Source: Vectrevirus T205P5. From it: DNA of 43,663 nucleotides. Positions 5,981 through 39,170 of this stretch are shown piece by piece. Each line of letters opens with the position of its first letter. The stretch's first letter is position 1. Made by a program: the position numbers and the translations under genes. The DNA lies in sequence record OZ035792.1; one strand, given 5' to 3'. Under the pieces are notes generated by a model. The model made no database searches. It was given only the letters and a program-made list of their open reading frames with translations, and was not told the origin of the DNA.

Positions 5981-7639
5981 ATGCTACAACGATTAAGTTC
6001 TTCACTAGTGAAGCACAAGAGCAAGCTAATAGGCGCTACCTATAGGCTGCTTGGTGATAAGCTTTTAGAGCTAAATAGTGTATCAGATTTTGGTGCAATA
6101 CCAAATCTTGAAACAGATAGTACTAATTCCATTCAAGCTGCAATTGATGCGACCCCGTCTGGTGGTACTCTAGGCTTCTATGGTGGGCCTTATAGATTTG
6201 GTACTGTTACAGTGGATAAACCAATTACACTAGTTGGAGATGCAGATTTGCAGTTTGAGTGCATTCGTATCAAGACAAGTAAGTTTCGTAGTTTCTTGAC
6301 AGGAACACTAACTGCTGCGAGATACGACAGTGCATGTCGTGCATTTCAAATCTTAGCCTATGAAGATGGGCAAGACTATGAGGACATCAAAGTACATGGT
6401 GCACGTTTCGAGGGTTTCTTCTATAACACAGACTTCCGAGGTCGTTCTTACGATGCGTCAGAAAGTGATCCTGCTAACCGAGTAGTTCGGGACACCTCTA
6501 TTATGGGCTGTACTTCAGTTCAACCTAAAGATGGTAAAGACAGAGGGCACTTTCAACACGTAGGTGTTACCAATGCCAAGTGCATAGGTAACTCAACGTA
6601 TGGTGGTAAGAATGCTACTTCTTATAACTTCATTAATGGTAATGGTTCTTTGGTGGTTATGGGTAACTATGACCATGACAATGAATATGGTTCCTTAGAG
6701 ATTGAGAATAACAAGATAAGCTACGGTGTTGTTACTGGTAATATCTTCCATAAACAGCTATGGATAGATGATACTAGCAACATTAACGTAACAGGTAACA
6801 CCTGCACAGATAGGATTTACATTACTGCACAATCTAACAACTCTGAGAACGTATCAGTAGTGGGAAACAATGTACCACGCATCTACGTCAGTAAGTTTGG
6901 TCAAAGCCCAACAGGGCGTCACCGTAACTTGACTATACGTGGTAATCATGTCACGGGCAAGGATGTTCCTAATTGTATATTCTTAGATGATTCTGTTGAT
7001 TCCGCTTCTATTGAAGGTAATGATTGTTATGGTGTGTCTGGTGTTAAAGGCATAGCCATTACTCGTCATGCAGATGCTAACCATACAGTGCGTCATAATA
7101 ACTTACATGGCACTAACTTACTCTTTAGTGGTTCGGGCGGAAAAGTTTATAGTTATGACAACTTTGATGTTGGAGTTGATGAATCCCCTGTGGCAGACAG
7201 AACTGACGCAGTGCACATTGACAACCTTCTTCGTGTAAATGATGAGTACCTTGATTTGCCAGGAAAGTACCTATACAAATCTAAGTATACAAGAGACATT
7301 ACACAAGGTGGCTCAACCACTATTGAGTTACCTGTAACCACAAGTGGTTCTTTGGCTTTTCGTGGTATTAGTTTATGGGTTCTTATCCGTAACACTTCTA
7401 CGGGGAACTTGTCTTCTTATCGTGTAGATGGAAGACATGCAGTAAGTGGTTCTTCTGTGACTGTTAGCTTTGGAGAGAAGTATGGGGTATTAGGAGTGAA
7501 TACTGGTGATGTTACTGTTAGTAATGATGCCTCTACGACTAATCTTATTCGTATCAAGGTAAGCAATGAGCATGTAAGTCAGACAATGCAGGTTACAGTT
7601 GTACCAGAGGTAACAAGCAGATTAGGGACTGAAGAGTAA
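5981..7639 (+). CDS. Tailspike 2: beta-helix depolymerase of unknown specificity
   Basis: AAGGAGG RBS; N-terminal motif SDFGAIPN...TDSTNSIQAAIDA; Asn/Gly/Thr/Val-rich repeats typical of parallel beta-helix tailspikes; no C-terminal chaperone domain and no sialidase Asp-boxes. Confidence 0.8.
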   Translation: MLQRLSSSLVKHKSKLIGATYRLLGDKLLELNSVSDFGAIPNLETDSTNSIQAAIDATPSGGTLGFYGGPYRFGTVTVDKPITLVGDADLQFECIRIKTSKFRSFLTGTLTAARYDSACRAFQILAYEDGQDYEDIKVHGARFEGFFYNTDFRGRSYDASESDPANRVVRDTSIMGCTSVQPKDGKDRGHFQHVGVTNAKCIGNSTYGGKNATSYNFINGNGSLVVMGNYDHDNEYGSLEIENNKISYGVVTGNIFHKQLWIDDTSNINVTGNTCTDRIYITAQSNNSENVSVVGNNVPRIYVSKFGQSPTGRHRNLTIRGNHVTGKDVPNCIFLDDSVDSASIEGNDCYGVSGVKGIAITRHADANHTVRHNNLHGTNLLFSGSGGKVYSYDNFDVGVDESPVADRTDAVHIDNLLRVNDEYLDLPGKYLYKSKYTRDITQGGSTTIELPVTTSGSLAFRGISLWVLIRNTSTGNLSSYRVDGRHAVSGSSVTVSFGEKYGVLGVNTGDVTVSNDASTTNLIRIKVSNEHVSQTMQVTVVPEVTSRLGTEE

Positions 7640-7987: not shown

Positions 7988-8154
7988 CCAAAGTCAAAAT
8001 TTTGATGTAGGCGTGTGTCAGCTCTCTCGCCCTCGCCCTCGCCGGGTTGCCCCCCATAGGGTGGCCTGAGGGAATCCGTCTTCGACGGGCAGGGCTGATG
8101 TACTCCTTCGCTAGTACAAGGGAGGCGGAGGGAGCGCCTAGGGAGGCCTAGGAA

Positions 8155-8445: not shown

Positions 8446-8635
8446 CATGCAAGCATGTAAGATGCCAATAGGTCGCGGTCGGTAGACCGCTAAAGAAAGA
8501 GAATAGTAATAAGATGCAGTAGGAGGAACACCAGAAACCTAGCCAACCTAGCCTATCCTAGCTCTGTATCTATTGCTTTTCCTTAGTCTAACATGTGAGA
8601 CAACCTAGATTTATCTTAGTGATGATATCTTAGTG

Positions 8636-9451: not shown

Positions 9452-9602
9452 GGTAAAGGCTGGCACTAGTCAGCCTATCAAGGCGCAAACCAAGCTCTTT
9501 AACAATTTGGATGGTAGCTTCTTAGTCTGGATAGGTTAAACCTAGGAGATTCTCTTGAGTCTCCTATAATGTAACCTAACTAACTAAATGAGGATTAATA
9601 AC

Positions 9603-11286: not shown

Positions 11287-13914
11287 ATGCAAGACTTACA
11301 CGCTATTCAACTTCAACTTGAAGAAGAAATGTTTAACGGCGGTATCCGTCGCTTTGAAGCGGACCAACAGCGCCAGATTGCATCCGGTAATGAATCAGAC
11401 ACGGCATGGAATCGCCGCTTATTGTCCGAGTTAATCGCGCCAATGGCTGAAGGTATTCAGGCATACAAGGAAGAGTATGAAGGTAAAAGAGGCCGTGCAC
11501 CGCGTGCATTAGCTTTCATTAACTGCGTAGAAAACGAAGTGGCAGCATATATCACGATGAAAATCGTTATGGATATGCTGAACACGGATGTAACCTTGCA
11601 GGCTATAGCCATGAATGTAGCTGACCGCATTGAGGACCAAGTACGTTTTAGCAAGCTGGAAGGTCACGCCGCCAAATACTTTGAAAAAGTTAAGAAGTCA
11701 CTTAAGGCAAGTAAGACTAAATCATATCGCCATGCGCACAACGTAGCGGTAGTGGCTGAGAAGTCAGTAGCTGACCGTGACGCTGATTTCTCCCGCTGGG
11801 AGGCATGGCCTAAAGACACCTTGCTGCAAATTGGGATGACCTTGCTTGAAATCTTAGAGAATAGCGTATTCTTCAACGGGCAACCTGTCTTCCTCCGCAC
11901 CTTGCGCACTAATGGCGGCAAACATGGTGTTTACTACCTACAGACTAGTGAACACGTAGGTGAGTGGATAACTGCATTTAAAGAACATGTAGCGCAACTT
12001 AGTCCAGCCTATGCACCTTGCGTTATTCCTCCGCGTCCGTGGGTATCACCCTTTAACGGTGGGTTTCATACTGAGAAAGTAGCAAGCCGTATTCGTCTGG
12101 TAAAAGGCAATCGTGAGCACGTCCGCAAGCTGACCAAAAAGCAAATGCCAGCGGTTTACAAGGCTGTTAACGCTTTGCAGGCGACTAAGTGGCAGGTTAA
12201 TAAAGAGGTTTTACAGGTTGTGGAGGACGTTATACGTCTAGACCTCGGCTATGGTGTACCTTCCTTTAAACCACTCATCGACCGTGAGAACAAGCCAGCT
12301 AATCCGGTGCCGTTAGAGTTCCAGCACCTGCGAGGCCGTGAACTGAAAGAAATGCTTACGCCGGAACAATGGCAAGCCTTTATCAACTGGAAAGGTGAAT
12401 GTACTAAGCTGTACACCGCTGAAACTAAGCGCGGAAGCAAATCGGCGGCAACCGTTCGCATGGTTGGTCAGGCCCGTAAATATAGCCAGTTCGACGCAAT
12501 CTACTTCGTGTATGCACTGGACAGCCGCAGCCGTGTATACGCGCAATCTAGCACACTCTCACCGCAATCAAATGACTTGGGCAAGGCCTTGCTCCGTTTT
12601 ACCGAAGGGCAGCGTCTTGATAGCGCTGAGGCGCTTAAGTGGTTTTTGGTGAACGGGGCTAATAACTGGGGTTGGGATAAGAAAACTTTTGACGTGCGCA
12701 CCGCTAACGTGCTGGATAGTGAATTTCAAGACATGTGCCGCGACATTGCAGCGGATCCGCTGACCTTCACTCAATGGGTAAATGCCGATTCCCCTTATGG
12801 CTTCCTTGCATGGTGCTTTGAATATGCGCGTTATCTGGATGCACTGGATGAAGGCACGCAAGACCAATTCATGACGCACCTACCCGTCCATCAAGACGGC
12901 AGTTGCTCTGGTATTCAGCACTATAGCGCGATGTTACGCGATGCAGTAGGTGCGAAAGCAGTAAACCTTAAGCCTTCTGACTCTCCTCAAGATATTTATG
13001 GTGCCGTTGCGCAGGTAGTAATTCAGAAGAATTATGCATACATGAATGCAGAGGATGCGGAAACCTTCACTTCTGGCAGCGTGACTTTAACAGGTGCGGA
13101 GCTGCGTAGTATGGCTAGTGCGTGGGATATGATAGGAATCACTCGCGGCCTGACCAAAAAGCCCGTAATGACACTACCTTATGGCAGCACACGTCTAACC
13201 TGCCGTGAGTCAGTGATTGATTATATCGTTGATTTAGAAGAAAAAGAGGCCCAACGGGCTATTGCGGAAGGGCGTACCGCCAATCCTGTACACCCTTTTG
13301 ATAATGACCGTAAGGACAGCCTGACACCTAGCGCAGCTTATAACTATATGACAGCTTTAATCTGGCCTTCTATTTCGGAAGTGGTTAAAGCTCCTATAGT
13401 GGCAATGAAAATGATTCGTCAGCTTGCACGTTTCGCAGCTAAAAGGAATGAAGGCTTAGAGTACACCTTGCCTACTGGCTTCATCTTGCAACAAAAGATA
13501 ATGGCGACAGATATGCTCCGCGTATCTACTTGCTTGATGGGAGAAATCAAGATGAGTCTACAGATTGAAACGGACGTAGTGGATGAAACGGCTATGATGG
13601 GCGCTGCTGCCCCTAACTTTGTGCACGGTCATGATGCCAGTCACCTTATCTTAACGGTCTGCGACCTTGTTGATAAAGGGATTACATCTATCGCAGTAAT
13701 TCATGATTCTTTTGGCACTCATGCAGGTCGCACCGCAGACCTACGTGATAGTCTAAGGGCAGAAATGGTGAAGATGTATCAAGGCCGTAACGCTCTGCAA
13801 AGCCTGTTAGATGAGCATGAAGAACGCTGGTTAGTAGACACCGGAATCCAAGTGCCAGAGCAAGGAGAGTTTGACCTTAACGAAATCTTAGTATCTGACT
13901 ATTGCTTCGCATAA
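11287..13914 (+). CDS. Single-subunit DNA-dependent RNA polymerase (T7 gene 1 family)
   Basis: 875 aa; matches T7 RNAP motifs as recalled (PWxxxx[25 protein letters not shown]-terminal DYCFA). Confidence 0.97.
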
Positions 13915-13922
13915 TATTAATA

Positions 13923-13953
13923 GGCCATTCCTTAGGGAGTGGCCTTTTCTTTT
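13923..13953 (+). terminator. Intrinsic terminator after the RNAP gene (early terminator, TE-like)
   Basis: GGCCATTCC-ttag-GGAGTGGCC stem-loop followed by TTTTCTTTT. Confidence 0.6.
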
Positions 13954-13988
13954 ACCTATTACCTGTAACATTTAATTAACATAACCGT

Positions 13989-14004
13989 GTCTCACACGTG
14001 AGAC
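13989..14004 (+). repeat. Conserved palindrome GTCTCAC-AC-GTGAGAC, copy 1 of 6
   Basis: Identical 7-bp arms shared with the copies at 14171, 16381, 17526, 22622 and 39188; sits immediately upstream of a phage promoter. Confidence 0.8.
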
Positions 14005-14027
14005 TTATTTACCGGACACTATAGGAT
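14005..14027 (+). promoter_or_regulatory. SP6-type phage RNAP promoter, first after the RNAP gene
   Basis: TTATTTACCGGACACTATAGGAT. Confidence 0.7.
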
Positions 14028-14030
14028 AAC

Positions 14031-14160
14031 CGTCGGAGACGGAAAGAAAGGGAAGATAAAGGATATAAAAGGAAGTAATAGGTATTAAAGGTTATATAGG
14101 TTTACCTAGGAATACCTATTACCTTCTTCCTTCCTCTTATTACTACTTAGAGGAAGGGCA
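14031..14160. other. AT-rich structured spacer between tandem promoters, candidate primary origin of replication
   Basis: Purine-rich arm (GGAAAGAAAGGGAAGATAAAGG...GGAAGTAATAGGTA) and complementary pyrimidine-rich arm (TACCTATTACCTTCTTCCTTCC) flank an AT-rich core; the location after the RNAP gene with flanking phage promoters parallels the T7 primary origin. Confidence 0.4.
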
Positions 14161-14170
14161 GACCTAAGTT

Positions 14171-14186
14171 GTCTCACATGTGAGAC
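14171..14186 (+). repeat. Conserved palindrome GTCTCAC-AT-GTGAGAC, copy 2 of 6
   Basis: Exact arms; followed by a degenerate promoter. Confidence 0.8.
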
Positions 14187-14190
14187 TTCG

Positions 14191-14216
14191 TATTTACCGG
14201 ACAGTATAGATAAGAC
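14191..14216 (+). promoter_or_regulatory. Degenerate SP6-type promoter (CAGTATAGAT)
   Basis: TATTTACCGGACAGTATAGATAAGAC; the upstream half is perfect, the core has C-to-G and spacing changes. Confidence 0.3.
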
Positions 14217-14239
14217 TAACTTACTTTGGAGATTTAACC

Positions 14240-14368
14240 ATGCGTAACTTTGAGAAGATGACCCGTAAAGCTAACCGTTTTGACATGGAAGAAGGGCAGA
14301 CGAAAGGCAAGAAGCTGAATAAACCTGTCCGTGACCGTGCATCTAAACGCGCTGCGTGGGAGTTCTAA
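14240..14368 (+). CDS. gp1.1-like small basic protein (42 aa)
   Basis: MRNFEKMTRKANRF...KGKKLNK...RDR.SKR..WE resembles T7 gp1.1 as recalled; GGAG RBS; under 60 aa so absent from the ORF track. Confidence 0.65.
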   Translation: MRNFEKMTRKANRFDMEEGQTKGKKLNKPVRDRASKRAAWEF

Positions 14369-14371
14369 GTT

Positions 14372-16360
14372 ATGGCTATTATTCAGAATGTACCGTGTCC
14401 TGCCTGTCAAAAGAATGGACATGATATTACTGGCAACCATCTTATGATATTTGAGGATGGCGCTGGTTACTGTAACCGTGGTCACTTCCATGATAATGGG
14501 AAGCCTTATTACCATAAGCCAGAGGGTGGTATCGAGATAACCGAATTGCCTATTACTGGCAATATCAAATATACACCCTCTCAATTCAAAGAAATGGAGA
14601 AGGAAGGGAAGATAAGCGACCCTAAGCTACGCGCCATCGCACTTGGTGGTATGCGTATGAAAGACCGTTGGGAGGTTATGAATGAGCAAGAAAGGGCAGA
14701 CCAAGAAGCAGAGTGGAAACTTGATGTTGAATGGTTCCTCACGCTTAAGCGTAAGAACCTTGTATCCCGTCACATTCGAGGTGACATCGCAGCAATGTAC
14801 GATGTGCGCGTTGGACACGATGAAGAGGGAAGAGTCAACCGTCACTATTATCCACGATATGAAAAGGGTGTGCTTGTTGGAGCAAAATGCCGGACGTTGC
14901 CGAAGGATTTTAAGTTCGGACACCTAGGTAAACTCTTTGGTATGCAAGACCTTTTCGGTATGAACACTTTGTCTCACGTGTTAGACAAGGGGAGACGAAA
15001 GGATTGCTTGCTTATTGTAGGCGGTGAACTTGATGCACTAGCAGCGCAGCAGATGCTCCTTGATTCTGCCAAGGGTACTAAGTGGGAGGGTCAGCCATAC
15101 CATGTATGGTCTGTCAACAAAGGCGAGTCTTGCCTTGAAGAGATAGTGCAGAACCGCGAGCATATCGCCCAATTCAAGAAGATTATATGGGGTTTTGATG
15201 GAGATGAGGTAGGGCAGAAGCAGAATCAGCAAGCGGCTCGCCTGTTTCCTGGCAAATCCTATATCCTTGAATATCCCTCTGGTTGCAAAGATGCTAACAA
15301 GGCATTGATGGCTGGCAAGGCTAAAGAGTTTGTAGATGCATGGTTTAATGCCAAGTCATCTGATGAAGTCTTTGGTAGCCAGATTAAATCTATCGCATCT
15401 CAAAGGGATAAGCTCAAGGCTGCACGTCCAGAGCAAGGACTATCATGGCCTTGGCCTAAGCTGAACAAGGTAACGCTAGGTATTCGTAAGAATCAGCTTA
15501 TCATTGTAGGTGCAGGGTCTGGTGTAGGTAAGACTGAGTTCCTTCGTGAAGTAGTTAAGCACCTCATTGAAGAACACGGTGAATCTGTAGGCATCATTTC
15601 TACAGAAGACCCGATGGTCAAGGTGTCCCGTGCTTTTATCGGCAAGTGGATTGATAAGCGTATTGAGTTACCGCCAACCAACGACCCGAAAGAAGATGGA
15701 TACCGTGAGGTGTTCGACTACACCGAGGAAGAAGCTAACGCCGCCATTGATTATGTAGCTGATACAGGTAAGCTGTTTGTAGCTGACCTAGAGGGTGACT
15801 ATTCGATGGAAAAGGTAGAGCAAACTTGCCTAGAGTTTGAGGCTATGGGCATTTCTAATATCATCATTGATAACTTAACGGGGATTAAATTAGATGAGCG
15901 TGCTTTTGGTGGGAAGGTTGGTGCACTTGATGAATGCGTCAAGCGGATTGGTACTATCAAAGACCGACACCCGGTTACTATATTCCTTGTATCACACCTT
16001 ACACGTCCTCCGGCAAACCGTACCCAACACGAAGAAGGTGGCGAAGTTATCCTTTCTGACTTCCGAGGCTCAGGCGCTATCGGATTCTGGGCATCTTACG
16101 CCTTGGGGATTGAGCGTAATACAAGAGCTGAAACGCTTGACGAAAGGACTACCACGTACATCTCATGTGTCAAAGACCGCGACCAAGGTATCTGGACTGG
16201 AACCAAGGTCATGCTTAAGGGTGACATTCAAACCGGACGTTTAATGGAACCACAAGCCCGTACTAAGTCATTTGACACCGGCGAAGCAAGGCAACAAGAA
16301 GTACCGGATTTACCGGACACTATAGAAGAGACTAACTTCGATGAAGAAAGTGAGTTCTGA
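14372..16360 (+). CDS. DNA primase/helicase (T7 gp4-like)
   Basis: N-terminal Cys4 zinc ribbon (CPACQ...CNRGH), TOPRIM-like VGGELDALA, Walker A GAGSGVGKTEF, acidic C-terminal tail ending EESEF. Confidence 0.95.
   Translation: MAIIQNVPCPACQKNGHDITGNHLMIFEDGAGYCNRGHFHDNGKPYYHKPEGGIEITELPITGNIKYTPSQFKEMEKEGKISDPKLRAIALGGMRMKDRWEVMNEQERADQEAEWKLDVEWFLTLKRKNLVSRHIRGDIAAMYDVRVGHDEEGRVNRHYYPRYEKGVLVGAKCRTLPKDFKFGHLGKLFGMQDLFGMNTLSHVLDKGRRKDCLLIVGGELDALAAQQMLLDSAKGTKWEGQPYHVWSVNKGESCLEEIVQNREHIAQFKKIIWGFDGDEVGQKQNQQAARLFPGKSYILEYPSGCKDANKALMAGKAKEFVDAWFNAKSSDEVFGSQIKSIASQRDKLKAARPEQGLSWPWPKLNKVTLGIRKNQLIIVGAGSGVGKTEFLREVVKHLIEEHGESVGIISTEDPMVKVSRAFIGKWIDKRIELPPTNDPKEDGYREVFDYTEEEANAAIDYVADTGKLFVADLEGDYSMEKVEQTCLEFEAMGISNIIIDNLTGIKLDERAFGGKVGALDECVKRIGTIKDRHPVTIFLVSHLTRPPANRTQHEEGGEVILSDFRGSGAIGFWASYALGIERNTRAETLDERTTTYISCVKDRDQGIWTGTKVMLKGDIQTGRLMEPQARTKSFDTGEARQQEVPDLPDTIEETNFDEESEF
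16307..16330 (+). promoter_or_regulatory. SP6-type phage RNAP promoter embedded in the 3' end of the primase/helicase gene
   Basis: GATTTACCGGACACTATAGAAGAG; encodes PDLPDTIEE. Confidence 0.7.
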
Positions 16361-16380: not shown

Positions 16381-16396
16381 TGTCTCACATGTGAGA
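16381..16396 (+). repeat. Conserved palindrome GTCTCAC-AT-GTGAGAC, copy 3 of 6 (extended stem 16377-16402)
   Basis: Flanks extend pairing to about 11 bp with one G-U wobble; lies after the helicase stop. Confidence 0.8.
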
Positions 16397-16436
16397 CAGG
16401 CTCTTATTAAGTACATTAAATAACTGGAGATTGATT

Positions 16437-17525: not shown

Positions 17526-17541
17526 GTCTCACGTGTGAGAC
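17526..17541 (+). repeat. Conserved palindrome GTCTCAC-GT-GTGAGAC, copy 4 of 6 (extended stem 17521-17545)
   Basis: Exact arms; flanks pair with one G-U wobble. Confidence 0.8.
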
Positions 17542-20486: not shown

Positions 20487-21044
20487 ATGGATGAACTGAA
20501 CACTAAGATGCTCAAGAAAGTTTATAATCTTGTATATAGTATCACGGGCCTACAATTCTACCCTGTAGGCGGTGCGGTTCGTGACACCCTGTACGGATTA
20601 ACACCTAAAGACTATGATATGGTGTTGCCTGTAGGGTCTATGGCAGATTCTCAGGCGCACGAAATCATGGAAAATATCTCTGAAGAGATGGCAATTATGG
20701 GATTTAGTACCAAACTCTACCAATCATACGGTATCAATTTAGGTTATGAAATCAACCCTACCTCTTTTCAGGCTATGTTCCTTAGCTGCATGAAAGTGCA
20801 GATGCGTAATTGCCAACTTGATTTGCTTCTTTCTAAGGCTGAAACCATCCAAGATCATGTACGTAAGCACGATTGCAATATGAATATGGTGTGGTTCGAT
20901 GGTAAAGATATCAAGTGGGAGCACGGCGGTGTTACTCCTTTCGTTCCTGTGTTAGAGTTCAACCCTGACGGATGTGATCGTCGCATTGCTTACATGGACA
21001 AGAAGCGCCATGAACTTATCCGTCACAAATTAATGCATCTTTGA
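20487..21044 (+). CDS. Nucleotidyltransferase, CCA-adding/poly(A) polymerase head-domain family (pol beta superfamily)
   Basis: YPVGGAVRDTLYGLTPKDYDMVL matches the catalytic head motif of class II tRNA nucleotidyltransferases (E. coli CCA: [23 protein letters not shown]); only about 185 aa, so head domain only; GGAGGA RBS before the internal ATG. Confidence 0.6.
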   Translation: MDELNTKMLKKVYNLVYSITGLQFYPVGGAVRDTLYGLTPKDYDMVLPVGSMADSQAHEIMENISEEMAIMGFSTKLYQSYGINLGYEINPTSFQAMFLSCMKVQMRNCQLDLLLSKAETIQDHVRKHDCNMNMVWFDGKDIKWEHGGVTPFVPVLEFNPDGCDRRIAYMDKKRHELIRHKLMHL

Positions 21045-21068
21045 TTTACCGGACACTATAGAAGGAAG
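21043..21068 (+). promoter_or_regulatory. SP6-type phage RNAP promoter
   Basis: GATTTACCGGACACTATAGAAGGAAG; followed by an AT-rich TAGGT-repeat leader. Confidence 0.8.
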
Positions 21069-21130
21069 TCCTAGGTAATCTAGGTTTATAAGGTAGTATA
21101 GGTAATTAAGTAAATATAGGAGATATAAAC

Positions 21131-36222: not shown

Positions 36223-39170
36223 TGGCAATTGAGCGACAAGCAGTACAAGGTCTGCCACAAGTGCAGGCCACTTCTCCTAATGTCATGACCTTTGCACCTC
36301 AGCAAGTTGGAGGTGTGGAGGCTGGCGTAGCTTCTACCTCCGGTAGTCGATTTATCGAAGACCTTATTCGAGCAGCCAGTAGTGTAGCTGATGTAACCAC
36401 TGGTATCCTTAATCAAAAGATTGAGGAAGATAAGGTTGTTCAAATGGAACGGGCATATAACGGATTAATGCCCTCTGAGGATGCAACTCGTGGTGGCGCT
36501 CGTGCTAACATGCTTGTCAAAGCTCAACTGCTAGCTAATGATGAAGCAGCACGAATGAAAGACATGGCTACTCGTTTCCAAGGAACGGATGACGAGTGGA
36601 CACAACTTATGGTTGACTCTCGTAATGAGATGCAGAATAAGCTGTTCCAGCAATACCCTGAGTTGCAAGGTGACAAAGATACCATGCGTATGGTCACTAA
36701 TGTCTTCCAAGAACAGCAGCCTCAGATTTGGGCTACACGAACCCAGCATAAACTTGACCGTGAACAAGCAGACCGTGAGGATACCTTTGACGGGCGAGTG
36801 GCTTCTACTTGGGATTCTAATATTGACCCTGAAGCCTCTGGCTATGCTTTACAGGAACGAATCCGCGAAGGTCTTACTCAAGGATTACTACCTGAACAGA
36901 TGCACAAGAAGTTAGTCCAGCGAGCAATTTCACTTGCACAAGGCGGTGATGTTAGCATGGCTGAAGCCTTGAAGTATGTGAAGGACGATAAGGGTGTTTC
37001 TGTTTATGCTAAGAATCCACAGCTTATCACAGCCATCACTAGTGGTAATGCAGTTTGGGCTAGGAATAATGTAGCTGATGTAACTCGTATGTCTTTCGAA
37101 GTTAAAGAATCATACCTTGCAGGTGATTTAACTGATGAAGAATTGTTGGAACGAGCACAGCACATTAATAATCTGACAGGTAATTCTGTCTTCTCTAACC
37201 CAGAACTAGAGGCACTGATGCGCCAACGAGCTAAGCAGAATGCAGAGCTAGGTGCAATGCAGGATATGCGCCGTGAGCTTTACTCCGACCGCCTGACTGG
37301 CTTCCAAGGTAAGACTGATAAAGAGAAGAAGGCTTACATTGATGTTATCAAACAAGATAGCCAACTTTATGCAGACCAGCAAATCAAACAACGTGGCTTG
37401 GACCCTTACAGTCAAGAGGCTGAAGCTATTCGTGGTGCAGTGGAAGTGCAGCGCCTGCAATTCATGAACTCCAAAGGCTTAGTGGATGATACCTTTGAGT
37501 CTCGTATCAAAGCCATGGAATCTATGCTATCGCCTGAGCACTTTGCCAAGGGCGAACCACAGGAGTTGATGACTATTCGCCAGTTGTGGGAACAGTTGCC
37601 AGAAGAGAGCCGAGGTGTCTTTGGTGACACGGTGAATGGCTACATGGATAACTACAACACTGCACTACAAATGGGAGAGACACCTTTGCAGGCTGCAAGG
37701 TTTGCGCGTGAAGCACAGCAGAAATTCTCTCGTACTGAGAAGGAAACCAAGAAGTTCAACTCAGCTATTGGAGATGCACTGGATGAGGTATCTGGTGCTG
37801 GCTGGTTTGATGGTAAAACCGAAGTGTCAGACTTAGGTAAAGCTATTGCGGAAGAAGAGTTACGAGCTAAGGCCAATATGTTGTGGTCTAGTGGTATGCG
37901 TAACATGGATTCTATCAAGAAGGCTTTAATTACTTGGGGCAATAAACGCTACACTCAAACAGAGGATGCAAAGACTTCCGGTGGCTATTTCATTAAAGGT
38001 GATTACACTTCTGCATCTGATATGCTTATGTCAGTTGGGAAAGGCGTAAACCCTACCGATGTACCTCTGGCGCTTGGTAGGTATGTAGAAACACAGATGC
38101 CAGAATTGAAGAAGGAGCTTCAAGAGTGGGAAACTAAAGATGATATATACATTGATTACAATGAACAGAAAGGTACTTTCGTGATTCGTGCTGGTGCAGC
38201 AGGTCGCCCTCTTTCTGGAGTAATCCCTGTAACCTCTTTAGATACCACTTCACTACTAGATTCTGCCTATCAGAAGAAAGTAGAGGAACGAGATAAAGGC
38301 GAGTATGTTCACCCTTATCGTACAGATATTGGTGCACAAGAGCCTATGCCAGCTAAACCAACTGCCAAAGATATTGGTAAATTTGGACTAGCTAACTTCC
38401 TCATGTCTTCTGCTTTTGCTTCTGGTGAGAATCTGCCTTCTAACTTCGAGATTAACTATCGAGGTAATATGCAACAATTCTATGACAAGCTAGCTATGGA
38501 TGAGAATAAAGATAAAGTTGGCTTTAATAAGGCAACTGGAACCTTTACTCCATATAAAGATGCTCACGGTGAGTCTATCGGTTACGGTCATTTCTTAACG
38601 GAAGAAGAGAAGCGAAACGGGTATATTAAGATTGGTGATGAACTAGTTCCCTATCGAGGGTCTATGTCTCAGCTTACAGAGAGCAAGGCTCGCGCTCTTA
38701 TGGAGCAAGATGCCAAGAAGCATGTGCCTCCTACTCGTGACTGGAAGATTCCGTTTGACCAGATGCATCCTGCACAGCAACGTGGCTTGATGGATTTAAC
38801 CTACAATTTAGGTAAAGGTGGAATCCAGAACTCACCGCGTGCTCTTGCTGCATTCAAAGCTGGTAAGCTTACGGAAGGCTTTATCGAAATGCTGGGCACT
38901 GCATCAAGTGAAGGTAAGCGTATCCCTGGTCTACTGAAGCGACGCGCTGAGGCATACAATATGGCATCTGCTGGTGGTGTGCCTAAGATTACCGAAGTGG
39001 AGACTCGTGAAGATGGCTCCATGTGGGTTAGGTTTGGTGGACCTATGCCAGCAGGTTCTGTCTCGGCATGGATTCATAAACGTATTGGTGCGGATGGTTG
39101 GTATCAGGTTTATGAGGCTGCACCTACCAAGTTAGCTAAAGGTTCTAAGGTAGGTAAATTTAAGTTGTAG
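36222..39170 (+). CDS. Internal virion protein with C-terminal lysozyme-like (GH24-type) peptidoglycan hydrolase domain
   Basis: 982 aa; the C-terminal region contains YKDAHGESIGYGH, resembling the T4 lysozyme motif YKDTEGYYTIGIGH. Confidence 0.7.
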   Translation: MAIERQAVQGLPQVQATSPNVMTFAPQQVGGVEAGVASTSGSRFIEDLIRAASSVADVTTGILNQKIEEDKVVQMERAYNGLMPSEDATRGGARANMLVKAQLLANDEAARMKDMATRFQGTDDEWTQLMVDSRNEMQNKLFQQYPELQGDKDTMRMVTNVFQEQQPQIWATRTQHKLDREQADREDTFDGRVASTWDSNIDPEASGYALQERIREGLTQGLLPEQMHKKLVQRAISLAQGGDVSMAEALKYVKDDKGVSVYAKNPQLITAITSGNAVWARNNVADVTRMSFEVKESYLAGDLTDEELLERAQHINNLTGNSVFSNPELEALMRQRAKQNAELGAMQDMRRELYSDRLTGFQGKTDKEKKAYIDVIKQDSQLYADQQIKQRGLDPYSQEAEAIRGAVEVQRLQFMNSKGLVDDTFESRIKAMESMLSPEHFAKGEPQELMTIRQLWEQLPEESRGVFGDTVNGYMDNYNTALQMGETPLQAARFAREAQQKFSRTEKETKKFNSAIGDALDEVSGAGWFDGKTEVSDLGKAIAEEELRAKANMLWSSGMRNMDSIKKALITWGNKRYTQTEDAKTSGGYFIKGDYTSASDMLMSVGKGVNPTDVPLALGRYVETQMPELKKELQEWETKDDIYIDYNEQKGTFVIRAGAAGRPLSGVIPVTSLDTTSLLDSAYQKKVEERDKGEYVHPYRTDIGAQEPMPAKPTAKDIGKFGLANFLMSSAFASGENLPSNFEINYRGNMQQFYDKLAMDENKDKVGFNKATGTFTPYKDAHGESIGYGHFLTEEEKRNGYIKIGDELVPYRGSMSQLTESKARALMEQDAKKHVPPTRDWKIPFDQMHPAQQRGLMDLTYNLGKGGIQNSPRALAAFKAGKLTEGFIEMLGTASSEGKRIPGLLKRRAEAYNMASAGGVPKITEVETREDGSMWVRFGGPMPAGSVSAWIHKRIGADGWYQVYEAAPTKLAKGSKVGKFKL

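Follow-up and report, generated by a model that had tools for sequence, protein, structure and literature searches.

Replication of phage T7 starts at the tandem promoters phi1.1A and phi1.1B, every T7 origin has and needs a T7 promoter, and when the primary site is deleted initiation takes place at secondary origins such as phiOR and phi6.5 (PMC8373140). R-loop priming has been discussed for plasmids that carry T7 origins (PMC8373140). In the SP6/K1-5 group, which is the source of a standard laboratory RNA polymerase and is used therapeutically against K1 E. coli, the replication origin has apparently not been mapped so far. Here we analyze the non-coding gap that follows the RNA polymerase gene of Vectrevirus T205P5 (OZ035792.1). 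The window, that is, the whole stretch of 43,663 nucleotides analyzed, is a complete, circularly permuted Vectrevirus genome (K1-5/K1E-like, SP6 supergroup). The gap extends over 325 bp from the RNA polymerase gene to a 42-codon open reading frame (ORF) and holds a candidate origin region.

We propose that this region is the gene 1–gene 1.1 control region and, most likely, at the same time a replication origin of the T7 style, primed by transcription; we hold this reading with middling confidence. The promoters and the terminator are known features of this phage group; the origin assignment is a prediction by homology, and we infer origin function from the homology of position and of replication proteins with T7. 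Because the downstream ORF encodes a gp1.1 homologue, the gap corresponds in position to the T7 gene 1–gene 1.1 spacer, and it too contains phage promoters in tandem. A first-pass annotation of the sequence had drawn the parallel with the T7 primary origin. The gene 1/gene 1.1 slot, the tandem promoters and the melt-prone leader are indeed the same, but initiation here is only predicted and the AT-rich block is placed differently. Comparison with the mapped T7 origin bore out the positional equivalence of the slot, and the stability scan described below recovers the T7 origin promoters. All the elements that the annotation had listed were found where it had put them or 1–2 nt away. Together with those added by our analysis, the elements of the region are:

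13922–13954, + strand: intrinsic terminator, with a stem at 13922–13945 of 10 pairs (6 G-C) and a 4-nt loop, then the U tract TTTCTTTT
13955–13988, + strand: conserved non-coding block (ACCTATTACCTGTAACATTTAATTAACA...), 34 bp between the terminator and palindrome 1
13989–14004, + strand: palindrome copy 1, GTCTCACACGTGAGAC, ending 2 nt before P1
14007–14024, + strand: promoter P1, with 0 mismatches to the 18-nt consensus ATTTACCGGACACTATAG
14030–14042, + strand: hairpin A (CCGUCGGAGACGG), a 5' stem-loop at +7 to +19 of the P1 transcript
14043–14108, + strand: purine-rich, AT-rich arm (GC 27%, purine 73%)
14069–14128, + strand: long hairpin B, with 18-nt arms (14069–14086 and 14111–14128) and a 24-nt apical part
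14129–14157, + strand: hairpin C (CCUUCCUCU ... AGAGGAAGG), present in most clades with differing sequence
14171–14186, + strand: palindrome copy 2, GTCTCACATGTGAGAC, ending 5 nt before P2; the SP6 group has GTCYAACGTGTTGGAC here
14192–14209, + strand: promoter P2 (ATTTACCGGACAGTATAG), with one mismatch (ACAGTATAG) and a predicted +1 at 14209

We take the first nucleotide of the P1 transcript to be the G at 14024, by analogy with SP6 promoters.

This architecture is shared by 25 related loci whose RNA polymerases are 70–100% identical: the elements keep the same order while their sequence drifts. The recurring order is terminator, palindrome, P1, stem-loop at +7 to +19, purine-rich repeats, pyrimidine-rich tract, P2, ribosome-binding site and gp1.1 homologue. 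The terminator, palindrome, P1, hairpin A, repeats, long hairpin and P2 are kept in six clades; palindrome 2, before P2, occurs in the closer clades only and is missing from the distant ones. Within the genus the non-coding gap is 93–98% identical; against the SP6 group and the Klebsiella phages the figure is about 70%. A search of viral contigs with the pattern of promoter plus hairpin A returned 108 loci, and the right context was found only in contigs already in our sample.

Duplex stability was scanned with a nearest-neighbour model in 60–80-bp windows, with T7 as the positive control. The four least stable windows of T7 begin 8–19 nt past phiOL, phi1.1B, phi6.5 and phiOR. In the T205P5 genome, the three least stable 60-bp windows begin at 2258 and 21072, tied for the lowest value, and at 14062, which ranks third. 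All three lie 11–38 nt past phage transcription starts; the 14062 window begins 38 nt past the P1 start, which places an AT-rich, easily melted segment right downstream of the promoter. The same three loci, after the terminase, DNA polymerase and RNA polymerase genes, head the stability lists of K1-5 and KpnP_VR702. They rank first, third and fifth in SP6, where the other top windows, 12255 and 12438, lie just downstream of gene 14, and first, second and sixth in phD2B; the pattern is weaker in PM85, phiEa1H and AS51. The two loci outside the gene 1–gene 1.1 gap are:

2226–2330, + strand: promoter (2226–2243) and AT-rich leader with four TAGGT repeats, containing the 2258 window
21044–21130, + strand: consensus promoter (21044–21061) and AT-rich TAGGT leader after the DNA polymerase gene, containing the 21072 window

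The first of these modules follows the large terminase gene; in SP6 the corresponding module, at 37773, sits where the gene for the terminase large subunit ends. An early suggestion was that the leaders of the promoters then placed at 2227 and 21043 might be secondary origins. Both are in the top three of the scan, with promoters at 2226 and 21044, but the origin role is a prediction only: by analogy with phiOR, phiOL and phi6.5 of T7, the two modules would be alternative or secondary origins.

The composition of the spacer between P1 and palindrome 2 fits a transcription-primed origin. It had been described as some 130 bp of AT-rich DNA with complementary arms; composition and arms hold up, but the length is 146 bp (14025–14170). 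Its GC content is 37%, and 31% in the core (14045–14145), against 45% for the genome, and its 60-bp GC minimum falls among the lowest 0.15% of genome windows. The purine arm (14069–14086) and the pyrimidine arm (14111–14128) are 89% complementary across 18 nt. The most purine-rich 60-mer of the genome (82% purine) starts at 14035, in the P1 leader, and among 12 promoter leaders this one has the highest purine content (0.74) and, with parameters after Sugimoto 1995 and SantaLucia 1998, the nearest-neighbour balance that most favours an RNA:DNA hybrid over the DNA duplex. In the proposed mechanism, the phage RNA polymerase starting from P1 would melt the AT-rich spacer, and the purine-rich transcript would remain hybridised on the pyrimidine-rich template strand. 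The phage DNA polymerase would then elongate this RNA rightward, and the primase/helicase would load onto the displaced strand and give rise to a leftward fork.

Several points weigh against an origin at this locus. The AT-rich block lies between the promoters here, whereas in T7 it lies past the second one. According to a secondary source (PMC4837284), Dobbins et al. (2004) put forward gene 14 as the origin of SP6, and no replication data for the SP6/K1-5 group turned up in the literature searched. AT-rich leaders are common in any case, intergenic DNA being AT-rich. Self-folding of the spacer RNA competes with hybrid formation, and the fold offers a purely RNA-level reason for the conservation of the spacer. 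Raw GC skew is positive across the whole genome, and the detrended cumulative skew minimum, at 14590 here and at 6690 in SP6, falls near the candidate but is weak evidence: in the T7 control the minimum falls at 9537 against about 5.9 kb, missing the true origin by 3.6 kb. Finally, the leaders at 2226 and 21044 are marginally less stable than the P1 leader, so that it is the T7 analogy, and nothing else, that singles out the P1 region as primary.

The structure of the P1 transcript bears on the strongest alternative, which we consider a serious contender although less probable than the origin reading. According to this alternative, the gap is a purely transcriptional and post-transcriptional control region and replication starts elsewhere, for instance in the leader after the DNA polymerase gene. 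P1 and P2 would be middle-class promoters, hairpin A a 5' stabiliser, hairpin B an RNase III-type site, and the palindromes 3'-end marks or attenuators. Hairpin A argues for such a role: it is 100% paired in 16 distinct sequences, one of its pairs occurs as G-C, A-U, C-G and U-A with none broken, and these compensatory changes in aligned homologues establish covariation. The P1 transcript as a whole folds with z=-3.1, and a long imperfect hairpin, usually with a shorter one next to it, folds in eight of eight clade representatives (z -1.9 to -4.9). Hairpins also occur in the leaders after most other promoters of the genome. The T7 hairpin R1.1 stands in the same position and has the 10-mer ACCTTCTTCC in common with hairpin B. 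Substrates of E. coli RNase III typically span about two helical turns of double-stranded RNA, often with an internal loop, the minimal one being 34 nt (PMC1540722), and hairpin B, with its 18-nt arms and apical helix, fits this size. The gene 14 suggestion for SP6 also favours a start of replication elsewhere (PMC4837284).

However, T7 combines both functions in the same region, so control of transcripts does not speak against an origin. Hairpin B resists column-by-column alignment between clades, so covariation is not demonstrable there, and its single changes within the genus are uncompensated. RNAalifold across clades retains only hairpin A, a small apical helix and palindrome 2, and a search of the entire genome against Rfam gave zero matches. 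Nor would a control region account for the three least stable windows lying at promoter starts as they do at the origins of T7. TAGGT arrays also recur at two leaders that do not fold.

These arrays form the second conserved component of the spacer. Six [A/T]AGG[T/A] motifs lie in the purine arm (14059, 14069, 14079, 14088, 14097 and 14107) at a spacing of 9–10 nt. The spacing holds in nine of nine clade representatives, with runs of 2–3 motifs (L018, L020, L021) up to 6–7 (SP6 group, PM85 group). Arrays are also found in the other two AT-rich leaders, both here and in SP6, so that tandem direct repeats in helical phase, as in iterons, are present in all clade representatives and at three loci. 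The leaders at 2226 and 21044 show no significant fold (z=-0.4 and +0.4); because they bear arrays while remaining unfolded, we regard the arrays as an element in its own right and rule out that they are mere hairpin arms. A role as a sponge for CsrA was dropped, the conserved unit not being GGA motifs. The first-pass annotation had assigned the 12-mer GGTTATATAGGT, together with CCTAGG/TAGGT repeats, to the leaders of both outlying promoters. The 12-mer is found at 2295 and again at 14090, and a copy with one mismatch lies at 2276, but it is absent from the 21044 leader, which shares the TAGGT repeats and nothing else.

The arrays raise the question of an iteron-type origin, in which a phage or host protein would bind the TAGGT repeats, bend or melt the DNA and recruit the helicase, so that a transcript alone would not suffice for initiation. 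The regular spacing across clades and in both other leaders is what such an origin would have, the arrays coincide with the weakest duplex regions, and T7 origins show merely loose CTTAAG/CTTAAA repeats. We nevertheless consider this origin type quite unlikely. No candidate binding protein was identified; all the arrays are transcribed, so that the repeats could just as well work at the RNA level or stem from slippage at the TATAGG core of the promoter; and T7-type replication does not need an initiator protein (PMC8373140).

Least probable of the alternatives, and in our estimate very unlikely, is that transcription from P1 yields a separate non-coding RNA, about 165 nt long, that ends at palindrome 2 and works in trans, say by titrating an RNA-binding protein of the host. 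In its favour are a non-coding, purine-rich transcript that is structured as well as conserved, and a palindrome 2 that scores as terminator-like with a U-rich tail. But the palindrome 2 hairpin has 6 pairs only and a poor U tract, and it is missing in distant clades; the conserved motif is AGGU and not GGA, and the RNA has no Rfam match.

The palindromes that flank the spacer had been counted among the components of the origin. This part of the proposal did not survive: they are not origin-specific but belong to a dispersed family of RNA stem-loops. The two 16-mers described, at 13989 and 14171, are present, but the genome holds eight in total (8586, 13989, 14171, 14971, 16382, 17526, 22622 and 39188). 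The copy after the primase/helicase gene has an extended stem:

16382–16397, + strand: stem-loop copy after the primase/helicase gene, with 7 extra stem pairs, 2 of them G.U, formed on the + strand only

The family consensus is GUC-NN-AC-RY-GU-N'N'-GAC. Whole-genome scans of K1-5, KpnP_VR702, phD2B, PM85, phiEa1H and Vibrio AS51 found 7–10 copies per genome, at syntenic sites; the scan of T7 found none. In SP6 the form is GTCYAAC-RY-GTTGGAC, with nine copies, of which eight sit at the same gene boundaries. The fourth and fifth core pairs (stem positions 4/13 and 5/12) are swapped in a compensatory manner at several sites whose flanks are conserved. At three sites per genome the stem runs on for 5–8 pairs that include 1–3 G.U pairs, on the + strand only; in six of the nine SP6 copies the + strand forms a U.G pair. 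Most genomes have a centre of 2 nt, PM85 and AS51 one of 3 nt. The compensatory swaps, the extensions with G.U pairs on the + strand only and the variable centre indicate that the 16-mer is an RNA stem-loop rather than a symmetric protein operator; the last two features are our grounds for rejecting a double-stranded DNA operator.

At 9570, K1-5 (L250) has the SP6-type core GTCCAACGTGTTGGAC; the flanks are identical at 17526 of the T205P5 genome, but the core there is of the GTCTCAC type. Either core can thus stand in for the other, or recombination has exchanged them. A clade-specific switch in the specificity of a trans factor is weakened as a candidate, K1-5 having one SP6-type core among cores of its own type. 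The copy at 14971–14986, in frame within the primase/helicase gene, followed the core swap of its clade: one codon changed from AAC to CAC (Asn to His) and another, silently, from TTG to TTA, and the sole change of the swap that would give a stop codon (TGA) did not occur. We read this as selection on the stem-loop motif even inside the primase/helicase coding sequence. We also considered stem-loops that act on the lagging-strand template and flip orientation at the origin; this idea is unsupported, the left-end copies of KpnP_VR702 and phD2B keeping the + strand wobble.

Both copies at the locus are followed by a T-rich promoter edge and for that reason score as weak terminator-like hairpins; they probably cap or attenuate transcripts that arrive from upstream. 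A search of the literature for the palindrome sequences did not identify the element. We give only a small chance to the broader proposal that the TAGGT arrays, which T7 lacks, mark the origins of the SP6 group and are read by a protein and that, separately, the stem-loop is a signal for an RNA-processing or RNA-binding factor.

Copies of the 16-mer core were seen in further viral contigs as well. The environmental contig IMGVR_UViG_3300005264_000045 (L156/L204; 44 kb) codes for a T7-like RNA polymerase and for a primase/helicase. At least five exact copies of the 16-mer occur in it, two of which (L156, 2711; L204, 7013) stand directly before the Shine-Dalgarno sequence AAAGGAG. In two viral contigs of high GC content, 85 and 129 kb long, the 16-mer core forms tandem arrays or lies inside longer perfect palindromes (L209, 2061–2159; L212, 964–1019 and 3004); these clusters exceed chance, while single 16-mer hits elsewhere are at about chance level.

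A terminator scan places the stem of the intrinsic terminator, first reported at 13923–13953, at 13922–13945; the hairpin and T run are kept in all clades with differing stem sequences. This is the early terminator, for the host RNA polymerase, and it ends transcription of the early genes. In the SP6 relative UAB_Phi78 a terminator has been reported past the RNA polymerase gene (PMC4837284), and the record of Vibrio phage AS51 annotates a terminator and two promoters after that gene. The block at 13955–13988 is near-invariant in the Vectrevirus, Zindervirus and Klebsiella-phage clades and missing from more distant ones. A sigma-70-like promoter was sought in it and none was found; within the block, TACCTATTAC is complementary to positions 14075–14084 of the purine arm.

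The strong phage promoter announced at 14005–14027 proved to be an exact consensus match, P1. Matches to the consensus with at most three mismatches number 12 in the genome, against 0.03 expected by chance. The second promoter, at first called degenerate (14191–14216), is present with its one mismatch, but this is no random decay: P2 is retained in every clade examined as a non-consensus variant. Together, P1 and P2 are the tandem promoters that start the DNA-metabolism genes, the gp1.1 homologue and then the primase/helicase. Tandem promoters after the RNA polymerase gene occur in most related genera examined, including Vibrio phage AS51. The exceptions are Erwinia phage phiEa1H and Pantoea phage Nifs112, in which the first promoter copy is truncated by a palindrome and one intact promoter is left. 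In both (phiEa1H, L137, about 1655–1700; Nifs112, L138) the 5' half of the promoter (ATTAACCACCCAG) is joined straight to a palindrome copy past the terminator, and it looks as if the stem-loop had taken the place of the initiation part of the promoter.

The genes that border the region are:

11287–13914, + strand: phage single-subunit RNA polymerase gene (T7 gene 1 equivalent), an 875-aa ORF annotated as RNA polymerase in matching records
14240–14368, + strand: 42-aa basic protein, homologue of T7 gp1.1 (BLASTP against T7 gp1.1: 59% identity, E=1e-13)
14372–16360, + strand: DNA primase/helicase gene, with the in-frame stem-loop copy inside (14971–14986)

The 42-aa protein also matches phrog_2490 (E=8e-18). 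The 801 bp around the locus match 98 phage records, the best being a Vectrevirus at 99% identity, with K1-5 and K1E at about 94%. The genome record and that of K1-5 are offset by a rotation of about 8.0 kb, and we map the physical left end to near 7990. Close to this end, at about 8085–8118, lie the G-rich windows of 40–80 nt that most favour an RNA:DNA hybrid, and CCTAGC/ACCTAG repeats are found upstream of the left-end stem-loop copy at 8586. A direct repeat, GAAGGGCAGA, occurs in the spacer past hairpin C (14145–14162) and in the ORF of the gp1.1 homologue (14283–14300), where it encodes the conserved EEGQ motif. Among the records compared, Y00105.1 (2759 bp), labelled 'Lederbergvirus Sf6', consists of the SP6 RNA polymerase gene and the start of the intergenic region; the label is probably wrong.

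The analysis thus yields three ranked candidates, each a promoter with a melt-prone leader, and a stability scan validated on T7, which make the question of where these phages start replication directly testable. It also brings out two conserved non-coding elements, the phased TAGGT arrays and the dispersed RNA stem-loop, which genome engineers would best leave intact until their roles are known.

Set beside origins primed through R-loops, such as those of ColE1 RNA II and of T7-origin plasmids, the locus has a promoter transcript as would-be primer, and its purine-rich RNA would favour a lasting hybrid; unlike in those systems, neither RNase H processing nor a defined RNA-to-DNA transition point is in evidence here.

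The T7 RNase III hairpin R1.1, which we take to lie between phi1.1A and phi1.1B (Dunn and Studier 1983), offers a closer comparison for hairpin B. Both are hairpins between tandem promoters after gene 1, with z=-3.2 for R1.1 and -2.5 here, and the shared 10-mer, at 14121–14130 in the pyrimidine arm, is part of the R1.1 3' arm (L027, about 193–205). This shared 10-mer may be residual homology or a coincidence driven by composition. Hairpin B differs from R1.1 in being longer, richer in A-U pairs and unalignable between clades, and it is a predicted fold.

The T7 primary origin differs from the region described here in several respects. Its activity has been demonstrated, whereas that of the region here is predicted. 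The promoters are 185 bp apart here and 75 bp apart in T7; the host terminator stands directly upstream here, whereas TE of T7 follows gene 1.3; and T7 lacks the phased TAGGT repeats, the long purine/pyrimidine inverted repeat and the flanking stem-loops. The secondary modules depart from the T7 secondary origins in sharing the phased TAGGT repeats, in that the third follows the DNA polymerase gene and not the exonuclease gene, and in that no left-end equivalent was seen. Yet like phiOR, phiOL and phi6.5 they consist of a promoter and then a least-stable genome window, which in T7 lies within about 20 nt, and the 2226 module follows the large terminase gene just as phiOR follows gene 19. The likeness is closest for the primary origin itself: the candidate region occupies the slot between the RNA polymerase gene and the gp1.1 homologue that phi1.1A (5848) and phi1.1B (5923) occupy in T7, both have two tandem phage promoters with a very unstable AT-rich stretch just past a promoter, and both have replication proteins of the same type encoded nearby.

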